Positions 5,294 through 6,697 of a stretch of DNA of 64,000 nt are shown piece after piece; position 1 is the first letter of the stretch, and the number at the start of each line of letters is the position of its first letter. The position numbers and the translations under genes are program-made. This DNA is from Shigella phage CT01: sequence record OK018184. One strand, 5' to 3'. The notes below the pieces were generated by a model. It was not told the origin of the DNA, ran no database searches, and saw only the letters and a program-made list of their open reading frames with translations.

Positions 5294-5369
5294 TGGTCGA
5301 GGCAGTAGGGATCGAACCTACGACCTAGGACTTAGAAGGTCCTTGCTCTTCCTTCTGAGCTATGCCTCG
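5294..5369 (-). tRNA. tRNA-Arg (anticodon UCU)
   Basis: manual cloverleaf: acceptor 5298-5304/5363-5369, T arm gtagg-gatcgaa-cctac, anticodon loop CUUCUAA, CCA encoded. Confidence 0.7.
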
Positions 5370-5373
5370 GATT

Positions 5374-5448
5374 TGGCGGACGTGATAGGATTCGAACCTA
5401 TAACCAATCGCTTAACAGGCGATCGCTCTGCCATTGAGCTACACATCC
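5374..5448 (-). tRNA. tRNA-Asn (anticodon GUU)
   Basis: manual cloverleaf: acceptor ggacgtg/cacatcc, T arm atagg-attcgaa-cctat, anticodon loop CUGUUAA, D stem gctc/gagc, CCA encoded. Confidence 0.7.
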
Positions 5449-5452
5449 AAAT

Positions 5453-5539
5453 TGGTGGGGAGTGGTGGAGTCGAACCACCCGAGTCGCAATGACAATGGA
5501 TTTACAGTCCACACCGCTACCTCTACGGGATAACTCCCC
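5453..5539 (-). tRNA. tRNA-Tyr (anticodon GUA), type II
   Basis: acceptor ggggagt/actcccc, T arm ggtgg-agtcgaa-ccacc, long variable arm, anticodon loop CUGUAAA. Confidence 0.6.
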
Positions 5540-5548
5540 AAATTAATT

Positions 5549-5623
5549 TGGTGGCCCTGGGTGGAATTGAACCACCATCTGGCGATTATGAGTCGCTTGC
5601 TTGAACCTTCCAGCTACAGGGCC
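5549..5623 (-). tRNA. tRNA with CAU anticodon (Ile2 or Met), copy 1
   Basis: acceptor ggccctg/cagggcc, T arm ggtgg-aattgaa-ccacc, anticodon loop CUCAUAA; position matches T4 tRNA-Ile. Confidence 0.6.
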
Positions 5624-5624
5624 T

Positions 5625-5700
5625 TGGTGCTGATTGACGGAATCGAACCGCCGACCTTCTCATTACAAGTGAGTTGCTCTACCTACTGAGCTAAATCAGC
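5625..5700 (-). tRNA. tRNA-Thr (UGU), copy 1
   Basis: acceptor gctgatt/aatcagc, anticodon loop CUUGUAA. Confidence 0.7.
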
Positions 5701-5705
5701 AAAAC

Positions 5706-5795
5706 TGGCGGAGGCGATAGGATTTGAACCTATGAGTCGCCGGAGCGACTGCCGGTTTTCAAGACCGGTGCATTAAACCACTCTGCCACGCCTCC
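5706..5795 (-). tRNA. tRNA-Ser (UGA), type II, copy 1
   Basis: acceptor ggaggcg/cgcctcc, long variable arm, anticodon loop CUUGAAA. Confidence 0.7.
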
Positions 5796-5797
5796 AG

Positions 5798-5871
5798 TCT
5801 CCATACAAGGATTTGAACCTTGGACCTCCTGATCCCAAATCAGGCGCTCTACCAAACTGAGCTACACGGAG
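5798..5871 (-). tRNA. tRNA-Pro (UGG), copy 1
   Basis: acceptor ctccata/cacggag (two G-U pairs), anticodon loop UUUGGGA; CCA not encoded. Confidence 0.6.
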
Positions 5872-5881
5872 TAAATTAAAT

Positions 5882-5955
5882 TGGAGCGGATAATGAGAAT
5901 CGAACTCACATCATCAGATTGGAAGTCTGAGGTAATGCCATTATACGATATCCGC
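5882..5955 (-). tRNA. tRNA-Gly (UCC), copy 1
   Basis: acceptor gcggata/tatccgc, anticodon loop CUUCCAA. Confidence 0.7.
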
Positions 5956-5960
5956 AAATT

Positions 5961-6047
5961 TGGTGCGAGAAGTGGGACTCGAACCCACAAGGAAATCATT
6001 CCGCAGCATTTTAAGTGCTGTGCCTTTACCAATTTGACCATTCTCGC
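5961..6047 (-). tRNA. tRNA-Leu (UAA), type II, copy 1
   Basis: acceptor gcgagaa/ttctcgc, T arm gtggg-actcgaa-cccac, long variable arm, anticodon loop CUUAAAA. Confidence 0.7.
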
Positions 6048-6048
6048 G

Positions 6049-6115
6049 CTGGGAATAAAGGACTCGAACCTTTGCATCCTGGAATCAAAATCCAGTGCCT
6101 TACCAATAACTCCCC
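6049..6115 (-). pseudogene. chimeric pseudo-tRNA at duplication junction (tRNA-Gln 3' body fused to tRNA-Tyr 5' end)
   Basis: Gln T arm and anticodon arm intact to 6106, then the sequence switches to the tRNA-Tyr 5' terminus; D-stem 5' strand lost and acceptor strands no longer pair. Confidence 0.6.
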
Positions 6116-6124
6116 AAATTAATT

Positions 6125-6199
6125 TGGTGGCCCTGGGTGGAATTGAACCACCATCTGGCGATTATGAGTCGCTTGCTTGAACCTTCCAGCTACAGGGCC
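6125..6199 (-). tRNA. tRNA with CAU anticodon (Ile2 or Met), copy 2
   Basis: identical to copy 1, offset +576. Confidence 0.6.
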
Positions 6200-6200
6200 T

Positions 6201-6276
6201 TGGTGCTGATTGACGGAATCGAACCGCCGACCTTCTCATTACAAGTGAGTTGCTCTACCTACTGAGCTAAATCAGC
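6201..6276 (-). tRNA. tRNA-Thr (UGU), copy 2
   Basis: identical to copy 1, offset +576. Confidence 0.7.
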
Positions 6277-6281
6277 AAAAC

Positions 6282-6371
6282 TGGCGGAGGCGATAGGATT
6301 TGAACCTATGAGTCGCCGGAGCGACTGCCGGTTTTCAAGACCGGTGCATTAAACCACTCTGCCACGCCTCC
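6282..6371 (-). tRNA. tRNA-Ser (UGA), copy 2
   Basis: identical to copy 1, offset +576. Confidence 0.7.
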
Positions 6372-6373
6372 AG

Positions 6374-6447
6374 TCTCCATACAAGGATTTGAACCTTGGA
6401 CCTCCTGATCCCAAATCAGGCGCTCTACCAAACTGAGCTACACGGAG
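6374..6447 (-). tRNA. tRNA-Pro (UGG), copy 2
   Basis: identical to copy 1, offset +576. Confidence 0.6.
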
Positions 6448-6457
6448 TAAATTAAAT

Positions 6458-6531
6458 TGGAGCGGATAATGAGAATCGAACTCACATCATCAGATTGGAA
6501 GTCTGAGGTAATGCCATTATACGATATCCGC
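6458..6531 (-). tRNA. tRNA-Gly (UCC), copy 2
   Basis: identical to copy 1, offset +576. Confidence 0.7.
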
Positions 6532-6536
6532 AAATT

Positions 6537-6623
6537 TGGTGCGAGAAGTGGGACTCGAACCCACAAGGAAATCATTCCGCAGCATTTTAAGTGCTGTGCC
6601 TTTACCAATTTGACCATTCTCGC
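6537..6623 (-). tRNA. tRNA-Leu (UAA), copy 2
   Basis: identical to copy 1, offset +576. Confidence 0.7.
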
Positions 6624-6624
6624 G

Positions 6625-6697
6625 CTGGGAATAAAGGACTCGAACCTTTGCATCCTGGAATCAAAATCCAGTGCCTTACCAACTTGGCTAATTCCCA
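6625..6697 (-). tRNA. tRNA-Gln (UUG), the only intact copy
   Basis: acceptor tgggaat/attccca, T arm aaagg-actcgaa-ccttt, anticodon loop UUUUGAU. Confidence 0.7.

Follow-up and report, generated by a model that had tools for sequence, protein, structure and literature searches.

Bacteriophage T4 carries eight transfer RNA (tRNA) genes according to its annotation (NC_000866), namely, Gln, Leu, Gly, Pro, Ser, Thr, Ile and Arg, and no gene for tRNA-Asn or tRNA-Tyr. The same region has been sequenced in phages T2L, RB1 and RB3, where tRNA-Tyr and tRNA-Asn genes are found (Brok-Volchanskaya et al., Nucleic Acids Research (NAR) 2008, PMC2330249). The T4 homing endonuclease SegB cuts the tRNA-Asn gene of T2L, in which its preferred site lies; in T4 × T2L crosses, segB was inherited by 99.6% of the progeny, and about 1250 base pairs (bp) were lost together with the Met, Tyr, Asn and Arg genes and two open reading frames (ORFs) (PMC2330249). 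In this study, the tRNA gene cluster of Shigella phage CT01 was analysed in a stretch of 64,000 nucleotides (nt) from sequence record OK018184, hereafter called the window. A preliminary description of this stretch had listed the same eight genes for T4, in agreement with the annotation, and had reported tRNA-Asn(GUU) and a type II tRNA-Tyr(GUA) beyond them.

We regard the cluster as very probably the standard T2/RB-type tRNA operon of Tequatrovirus, the T4-like phages of E. coli and related bacteria, with ten tRNA species, to which one 576-bp duplication is added in the sequence as given. ARAGORN, applied to the whole window, called 16 tRNA genes, all on the minus strand, at 5294–6697, which are exactly the limits given in the preliminary description; Asn and Tyr were likewise called at the exact coordinates reported there. 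In the order of transcription, the array begins with Gln(UUG) and continues with Leu-Gly-Pro-Ser-Thr and a gene with a CAT anticodon, which extends to 6125; after a gap of 77 nt the same six genes follow again (6047–5549), and Tyr, Asn and Arg close the array. The array genes are spaced 0–10 nt apart, with spacers of 9 nt for Ile-Tyr and 4 nt each for Tyr-Asn and Asn-Arg; Asn and Tyr thus sit between Arg and the Ile-like gene with Arg abutting, as had been described. The earlier count of ten distinct genes holds for the tRNA types; the interval itself contains 16 called genes and a hybrid pseudo-tRNA, and the duplication had been missed. Fourteen of the array genes matched the Rfam tRNA model (RF00005) at 59–74 bits, with Asn scoring highest and Tyr being the exception. 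The array is composed as follows:

6624–6697, minus strand: tRNA-Gln(UUG), intact, heading the array (ARAGORN; Rfam tRNA 67.4 bits; 89% identical to T4 Gln)
6537–6623, minus strand: tRNA-Leu(UAA), promoter-proximal copy (ARAGORN, Rfam; 100% identical to T4 Leu)
6458–6531, minus strand: tRNA-Gly(UCC), promoter-proximal copy (ARAGORN, Rfam)
6373–6447, minus strand: tRNA-Pro(UGG), promoter-proximal copy, CCA not encoded (ARAGORN, Rfam)
6282–6371, minus strand: tRNA-Ser(UGA), class II, promoter-proximal copy, encoded CCA as in T2L (ARAGORN, Rfam; T2L/T4 difference from PMC2330249)
6201–6276, minus strand: tRNA-Thr(UGU), promoter-proximal copy (ARAGORN, Rfam)
6125–6199, minus strand: CAT-anticodon tRNA (Ile2-like; Met according to ARAGORN), promoter-proximal copy (ARAGORN, Rfam)
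6048–6115, minus strand: hybrid pseudo-tRNA Tyr::Gln at the duplication joint (sequence; Rfam tRNA 32.6 bits)
5961–6047, minus strand: tRNA-Leu(UAA), distal copy (ARAGORN, Rfam, repeat identity)
5882–5955, minus strand: tRNA-Gly(UCC), distal copy (ARAGORN, Rfam, repeat identity)
5797–5871, minus strand: tRNA-Pro(UGG), distal copy (ARAGORN, Rfam, repeat identity)
5706–5795, minus strand: tRNA-Ser(UGA), distal copy (ARAGORN, Rfam, repeat identity)
5625–5700, minus strand: tRNA-Thr(UGU), distal copy (ARAGORN, Rfam, repeat identity)
5549–5623, minus strand: CAT-anticodon (Ile2-like) tRNA, distal copy (ARAGORN, Rfam, repeat identity; 100% identical to the T2 gene)
5453–5539, minus strand: tRNA-Tyr(GUA), class II, intact, single copy (ARAGORN; two substitutions relative to the T2 gene)
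5374–5448, minus strand: tRNA-Asn(GUU), intact, single copy, with the SegB core motif GGTTCGAATCC...CCAA (ARAGORN; Rfam 74.1 bits; 100% identical to T2 Asn)
5294–5369, minus strand: tRNA-Arg(UCU), T2-type allele, 73% identical to that of T4 (ARAGORN, Rfam)

The CAT-anticodon gene was taken to be Ile2-like from its C4-G69 and C5-G68 pairs and its ileX-like anticodon arm, as read from the sequence. The Ser gene is 90 nt long with an encoded CCA(G), like that of T2L, whereas T4 Ser is annotated as 87 nt without CCA; this difference between T2L and T4 moves the SegB cut point (PMC2330249).

The gene order of the T2/RB-type cluster was found in full in the window, namely, ...Ser-(Thr)-Ile-like-Tyr-Asn-Arg followed by a 116-amino-acid (aa) ORF and without segB, except that the usual single copy per type is replaced by two copies for six types. 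The block from the Ile-like gene to Arg is 98.5% identical to phage T2, with the Asn gene at 100%, and the nearest records over the region were P922 (99.1%) and phage 132 (98.5%). The annotation of phage 132 (MZ417521) lists Gln-Leu-Gly-Pro-Ser-Thr-Met(CAT)-Tyr-Asn-Arg, one gene each, followed by a 351-nt ORF. The 172-nt Tyr-Asn segment matched 609 phage records, 395 of them with at least 80% coverage, including T2 and RB68; the block Leu-Gly-Pro-Ser-Thr-Ile reached at least 80% coverage in 497. Twenty contigs encoding the exact 95-aa protein upstream or 116-aa protein downstream of the array were collected from NCBI, ENA metagenome assemblies and Logan. These contigs carried 7 to 11 tRNA genes each, and the same ten-gene set was present in 11 of the 20; the variants had an added His gene, or had Gln, Pro or Asn replaced by an ORF, in several cases a GIY-YIG endonuclease. 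Gln-Leu-Gly-Pro-Ser-Thr-Ile-Tyr-Asn-Arg is the commonest Tequatrovirus layout. The two genes reported beyond the eight of T4 are real, but they are already known and common, being present in those 395 records and annotated in hundreds of genomes.

The tRNA cluster is a hotspot of ORF insertions, each displacing one tRNA gene. A GIY-YIG ORF stands exactly at the Asn position in L018 (2698–3405) and L027 (2740–3405), which retain Tyr but have lost Asn; in L009, L012, L013 and L022, the place of Gln is taken by a 202-aa ORF; L013 4684–5334 and L015 4130–4780 are listed among the ORF insertions, and one GIY-YIG insertion in the cluster replaces Pro. In some relatives, tRNA-His lies between Asn and Arg.

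The relation to T4 is one of replacement. Identity to T4 is 96–100% for Leu, Gly, Pro, Ser and Thr, 89% for Gln, 76% for the Ile-like gene and 73% for Arg, and the T4 alignment ends inside the Ile gene. The divergent Ile-like and Arg alleles and the break of homology in the Ile gene indicate that the whole cassette differs, rather than that two genes were simply inserted: the window has Ile-like-Tyr-Asn-Arg with the 116-aa ORF, where T4 has Ile-segB-Arg. The T4-type arrangement of eight genes with the GIY-YIG gene segB between Ile and Arg is absent from the window, in which Tyr and Asn occupy this position and no ORF is found there. The Asn gene of the window contains the T2L SegB site GGTTCGAATCC...CCAA. 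As the Tyr/Asn form is widespread and SegB replaces the corresponding block of T2L, the eight-gene set of T4 is concluded to be the derived state; very probably, the segB homing cassette overwrote this part of the cluster in T4, thereby erasing its Asn and Tyr genes and making T4 the atypical member. The natural variants with a GIY-YIG ORF at the Asn position fit such a segB-type replacement. The preliminary description had proposed a local gain or replacement in a window near-identical to T4. Replacement stands, whereas gain reverses the direction of the change; near-identity was overstated, as the flanks of the cluster are 94–96% identical to T4 and, across the first 25 kb, EcNP1 and Nami come closest, at 98.0%.

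Only the duplication sets the cluster apart from the usual layout. It is a perfect tandem duplication with an offset of 576 and one shared base, which doubles Leu-Gly-Pro-Ser-Thr-Ile:

6106–6682, no strand assigned: tandem repeat, promoter-proximal unit, 577/577 identical to 5530–6106 (repeat search family D1)
5530–6106, no strand assigned: tandem repeat, distal unit, with the novel joint at base 6106

One boundary of the unit follows Tyr position 10, the other precedes approximately Gln position 17, and the joint reads GGGGAGTTAT followed directly by TGGTAAGGCAC..., in which GGGGAGTTAT corresponds to Tyr nucleotides 1–10. The resulting hybrid of 68 nt (6115–6048) joins the 5' 10 nt of Tyr to the 3' 58 nt of Gln. 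It retains the anticodon arm, T arm and 3' acceptor strand of Gln with six of seven acceptor pairs (G1.A72 being mismatched), but has no 5' strand of the D stem, and its halves are six positions out of register; the in-register fusion with all four arms that marks a functional hybrid is thus absent. The hybrid scored 32.6 bits with the Rfam tRNA model (cut-off 29) and folded no better than shuffled sequence (z-score −0.64); ARAGORN matched it only with the threshold at 80%, calling a Gln(ttg) of 65 nt whose D arm is broken. G10 is an identity element for glutaminyl-tRNA synthetase and is lacking in the hybrid. We regard the Tyr::Gln hybrid as a pseudo-tRNA, probably an inert RNA. No promoter-like site was found inside the duplicated unit; all that a real duplication would be expected to do is to place six tRNA genes twice on one transcript, at up to twice the dose.

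The joint is private to this record in the collections searched. A 38-nt query across it gave zero matches in the phage collection, in which a control query of the same length across the wild-type Ile-Tyr boundary matched 564 records, and it was not found in the viral, metagenome or genome contig collections. In the best relatives, the two halves of the joint match about 577 bp apart. The six-gene block was located 688 times in 686 phage records, and none of the 20 related contigs has any tRNA type in two copies. Exact-protein look-ups found neither a 99-aa ORF spanning the joint nor the 310-aa protein described below on record, and literature searches revealed no T4-like phage with 16 tRNAs and no Tequatrovirus tRNA duplication.

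A second perfect tandem duplication, of 93 bp, was detected at 61679–61864 (61679–61771 equal to 61772–61864, with 0 nt of overlap at the joint). It duplicates 31 aa in frame in a 310-aa ORF (62576..61644, minus strand; phrog_420, function unknown). This duplication is absent from the 12 closest phage records, each with one copy, including DCP2 at 99.8%, and neither the phage nor the viral collection contained its joint.

With no great confidence, we lean towards the view that the 576-bp duplication is an artefact of assembly or finishing, or of later data handling, and that the phage itself has ten tRNA genes. For example, overlapping contig ends or an untrimmed circular-permutation overlap may have been concatenated before the start of the record was moved to match the T4 convention; the product would be an exact tandem repeat inside the record, joined at an arbitrary point. 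The absence of any mismatch in 577 nt agrees with such an origin, as does the absence of both joints from every collection searched. The joints themselves point the same way. Arbitrary joints drawn in the window overlapped by 1 nt or less in 82% of trials and by at least 6 nt in 0.25%; against this chance distribution, the overlaps of 1 and 0 nt make both joints look arbitrary, and the larger one is moreover out of register (Tyr 10 to Gln 17). Segmental amplifications of T4 arise instead at microhomologies, typically of 6–10 bp, or of 2–10 bp in older work (Srikant et al., eLife 2022, PMC9391042); head-to-tail copies as in these amplifications were found here, a microhomology of such length was not. 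Arbitrary-looking joints fit untrimmed contig joining or later editing at least as well as they fit biology. The window is also colinear with T4 and apparently begins around base 64,000 of a record in T4 order, as would suit an assembly that was re-oriented or ordered by a reference. Several observations count against an artefact. One circularisation overlap explains only one duplication, such that both would need several untrimmed joins of different lengths; overlaps left by a de Bruijn assembler have a fixed k, and not lengths of 93 and 576; the 93-bp event is in frame and leaves the 310-aa ORF open, which arbitrary joins do one third of the time; and the assembly is otherwise clean, with 50 ORFs of at least 150 aa covering about 53 of the 64 kb.

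A genuine and very recent duplication is the less probable account, and a small share of our estimate falls to neither. A genuine duplication would have arisen between Gln and Tyr in their D-arm regions, by template switching or by illegitimate (non-homologous) joining. McClain and Foss are said to have reported hybrid T4 tRNA genes in Cell in 1984, which would favour it. A novel joint in an assembly normally requires reads containing it; the 93-bp duplication preserves its frame; 576 bp lies well inside the terminal redundancy of about 3.3 kb; and the duplicated genes read codons that are 2.3–4.9 times commoner in the phage than in the host sample described below. Selection for faster translation of codons ending in A may have maintained such a duplication, or plaque purification may merely have caught it. 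A perfect 576-bp repeat would, however, be expected to be lost fast through the very active homologous recombination of T4 unless selected; the repeat is unique among about 500 relatives and consists of two copies only, not an array. T-even phages do readily form tandem amplifications that raise gene dose, such as tifA in evolved T4 and the rII and gene 16–18 cases cited in PMC9391042, but the overlaps of 1 and 0 nt lie outside the 2–10 bp reported for T4 in the same source. We consider it quite improbable that the duplication is both real and selected, that is, that a natural T-even phage has doubled six tRNA genes for A-ending codons by homology-independent tandem duplication, with a Tyr/Gln hybrid lacking the D arm as a by-product. 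Two further candidate routes were considered. Homology-driven unequal crossing-over between tRNA genes was rejected, as the halves are out of register and a shared 4-nt AGTT was not used; repair of a SegB-induced break was left as speculation, as SegB cuts near the 3' ends of tRNA genes and the joint lies in D-arm regions.

If the duplication is real, it would represent the first natural copy-number change in this well-studied tRNA operon among about 500 sequenced relatives, and its joint would be non-homologous, unlike the microhomology joints known from amplifications in this phage; if it is also maintained by selection, it would be a wild example of tRNA-operon dosage tuning, comparable to the tifA amplifications seen in the laboratory. 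In the case of an artefact, the record over-counts the tRNA genes (16 versus 10) and probably contains at least one more false duplication, at 61679–61864. The count of 16 genes for the phage needs verification first. The presence of Asn and Tyr matters little as a finding in itself, as these genes have been in the literature for T-even phages other than T4 since at least 2008.

The role of the ten tRNA species was considered through codon usage, which was compared by applying the same ORF procedure to the window (50 ORFs, 17.6 thousand codons) and to 50 kb of E. coli K-12. Tyr (4.27% versus 2.62%, 1.63-fold) and Asn (5.98% versus 3.94%, 1.52-fold) were the two most enriched of the twenty amino acids in the phage relative to the host. 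Apart from Tyr(GUA) and Asn(GUU), the tRNAs read Gln CAA, Leu UUA, Gly GGA, Pro CCA, Ser UCA, Thr ACA, Ile AUA and Arg AGA, and these A-ending codons were 1.5–4.9 times commoner in the phage than in the host sample. The enrichment of Tyr, Asn and A-ending codons supports the classical supply-and-demand explanation, and Asn and Tyr most likely add decoding capacity for the AT-rich phage proteome.

It is rather unlikely that Tyr and Asn serve mainly as counter-defence spares that replace host tRNAs destroyed by tRNA-cleaving immunity, and not for codon supply. Their anticodon loops, CUGUAAA and CUGUUAA, are identical to those of the E. coli host, and such loops, without nuclease-evading changes, count against this role; the amino-acid enrichment already accounts for Tyr and Asn in particular, and the two roles are not mutually exclusive. 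Counter-defence nevertheless has precedents. A T5-family tRNA-Tyr gives protection from retron-Eco7, the PtuAB effector of which destroys the tRNA-Tyr of the host, and a phage tRNA-Lys counters PrrC (Azam et al., Nat Commun 2024, PMC11555353). Similar Tyr genes are present in unrelated rV5-like phages (96–97%) and on plasmids of about 110 kb (83% over the Tyr-containing segment), as expected of a mobile and broadly useful gene, and the host chromosome has no match to the Tyr-Asn segment at blastn sensitivity. The Tyr gene thus seems to move between phages.

A recent origin by capture from the chromosome of the host was rejected: in a blastn search of 5,426 E. coli genomes, the Tyr-Asn segment was found nearly only on plasmids of about 110 kb (275 of 293 places, about 83% identity). 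These plasmids, including E. coli pEC881_2 (109 kb; L003 1421–2247), carry an Asn-Tyr-Thr-Ser tRNA cluster with a Tyr gene close to that of the phage, and are probably phage-plasmids. A switch of anticodon from Asn to Thr in the plasmids was also rejected; the neighbouring gene is simply a Thr(TGT) gene that shows the similarity common to tRNAs, and a separate Asn gene is present on the plasmid.

Judged by their predicted structures, Asn and Tyr look like ordinary elongator tRNAs. Asn forms a complete cloverleaf in ARAGORN, with stems of 7/4/5/5 bp and the GUU anticodon in a 7-nt loop, and obtained the top tRNA score of the region (RF00005, 74.1 bits, E 2e-15, cut-off 29). The identity elements of asparaginyl-tRNA synthetase are G73 and the anticodon G34 U35 U36; the gene has G73, a GTT anticodon and an encoded CCA. 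Tyr is an 87-nt class II tRNA whose long variable arm has its own stem, with a 7-bp acceptor stem, a 5-bp T stem, A73 and an encoded CCA (ARAGORN). Among its homologues, the plasmid gene shows a compensatory change from G29-C41 to A-T, and the genes of T2 and the plasmid show G-C to G.U changes in stems that preserve pairing.

The array is flanked by the following features:

7704–7732, minus strand: candidate sigma-70-like promoter TTTACA-17-TACTAT with TG, the nearest upstream, about 1 kb before Gln (consensus match only)
6795–7082, minus strand: 95-aa ORF homologous to T4 trna.2 (Pfam Phage_T4_Y07B), adjoining the array on its upstream side
4927–5277, minus strand: 116-aa ORF after Arg (phrog_3355, function unknown), counterpart of the 'trna.2' ORF of T2L
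4590–4927, minus strand: T4 rnaD (species 2 RNA) and rnaC (species 1 RNA) homologues, with 90.7% identity to T4 (blastn against the T4 annotation)
4597–4620, minus strand: strong terminator-like hairpin where the rnaC homologue ends, of 10 bp, 7 of them G-C, followed by a T run (pattern match only)

By analogy with T4 biology, the ten-species array is most likely read as one transcript, from a promoter upstream of the trna.4/.3/.2 ORFs to a terminator after the rnaC homologue, and would then be cut to single tRNAs by host RNase P and 3' trimming. Asn and Tyr would act as elongators that boost decoding, and the duplication, if real, would add six gene copies and the hybrid. The start of the 116-aa ORF is matched by T2L primer #24 with two mismatches, and T2 has a 351-nt ORF at the same place. 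Rfam gave no family match for the rnaD/rnaC homologues, and no function could be assigned to the neighbouring ORFs from Pfam or PHROGs. In one Logan contig (L011 4889–4982), ARAGORN called a 94-nt 'tRNA-Lys(ttt)' just past Arg, approximately where rnaD-like sequence is expected, which is possibly a tRNA-like RNA. Between an e.8-like gene and the rnaC homologue, about 580 bp (4010–4589) have no counterpart in T4 or phage 132; a 162-aa ORF there (4506..4018, minus strand) matched phrog_2280 (E 1.5e-44, function unknown), with only a sub-threshold match in Pfam. A family of four 54-nt repeats (3473–3526, 3811–3864, 7693–7746 and 8059–8112; family D3) is 63–78% identical; two of them overlap minus-strand TTTACA-17-TACTAT sites with an upstream TG, and these are probably early promoters of the T4 type placed before the ipI and trna.4 homologues.

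Several points weigh against reading the cluster as an operon of working tRNAs for codon supply. The CAT-anticodon gene can be read as Met instead of Ile, Met being the label used by the T2L authors. Promoter and terminator pattern matches are no more frequent in the window than in shuffled sequence. The host sample consists of only 50 kb of K-12 and is rich in ribosomal-protein genes, and the codon-supply role is correlative; a counter-defence role for Tyr is equally hypothetical. The D stem of Tyr has one C.C mismatch in the ARAGORN cloverleaf, and the sole match listed for Tyr in Rfam was the tRNA-Sec model, below its cut-off (35.4 bits against 47); the general tRNA model was not listed, its score being masked by clan competition, and support for Tyr thus comes from ARAGORN and conservation. 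It is nonetheless highly improbable that the calls for Asn and Tyr represent rnaC/rnaD-type tRNA-like RNAs, which the preliminary description had allowed for, or decayed pseudogenes, even with these features of Tyr and with one cluster gene labelled 'tRNA-OTHER' in a few GenBank records: the T4 rnaC/rnaD region aligns by blastn to 4590–4927, away from 5374–5539, and both genes have full cloverleafs with the expected discriminators (G73 in Asn, A73 in Tyr), and are conserved at 95% or more in several hundred records, with compensatory stem changes in Tyr and the top tRNA score in Asn.

Compared with known systems, the hybrid resembles the T4 hybrid tRNA genes attributed to McClain and Foss in that two tRNA genes of one cluster are fused by a rearrangement within the cluster; those hybrids, however, are reportedly full-length and derived from exchange between similar stretches, whereas the hybrid of the window is six positions out of register and has lost the D stem. 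With the T4 cluster, the window shares the neighbours ipI and trna.4/.3/.2 upstream and rnaD/rnaC downstream; T4 differs by segB between Ile and Arg, the lack of Tyr, Asn and the 116-aa ORF, and a total of eight genes. The dmd-tifA (PMC9391042), Hp17 and rII amplifications of T4 share with the window the head-to-tail repeat of a short T-even segment that would raise gene dose. They arose at microhomologies of 2–10 bp, often reached about ten copies and were confirmed by coverage and PCR, whereas the repeat of the window has two copies and a 1-nt overlap and is known from assembled sequence alone. The T5 tRNA-Tyr active against retron-Eco7 is likewise a tRNA-Tyr(GUA) of a virulent coliphage; T5 belongs to another phage family, in which alone the function was shown (PMC11555353), the T-even Tyr considered here being known from sequence. 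Phage 132, P922, EcNP1, Nami and other ten-tRNA Tequatrovirus phages have the same gene order and flanking ORFs at 98.5–99.1% identity; their genes are in single copy and the array is 576 bp shorter. T2/T2L (EMBL AJ880101; PMC2330249) has in common with the window the Ile-like(CAU, called Met)-Tyr-Asn-Arg block with the 351-nt ORF, the absence of segB, the SegB core motif in Asn and the encoded CCA of Ser. Its layout, Gln-Leu-Gly-Pro-Ser-[ORF]-Met-Tyr-Asn-Arg-[351-nt ORF], has an ORF in the position of Thr and nine tRNA genes, whereas the window retains Thr and has six genes doubled.

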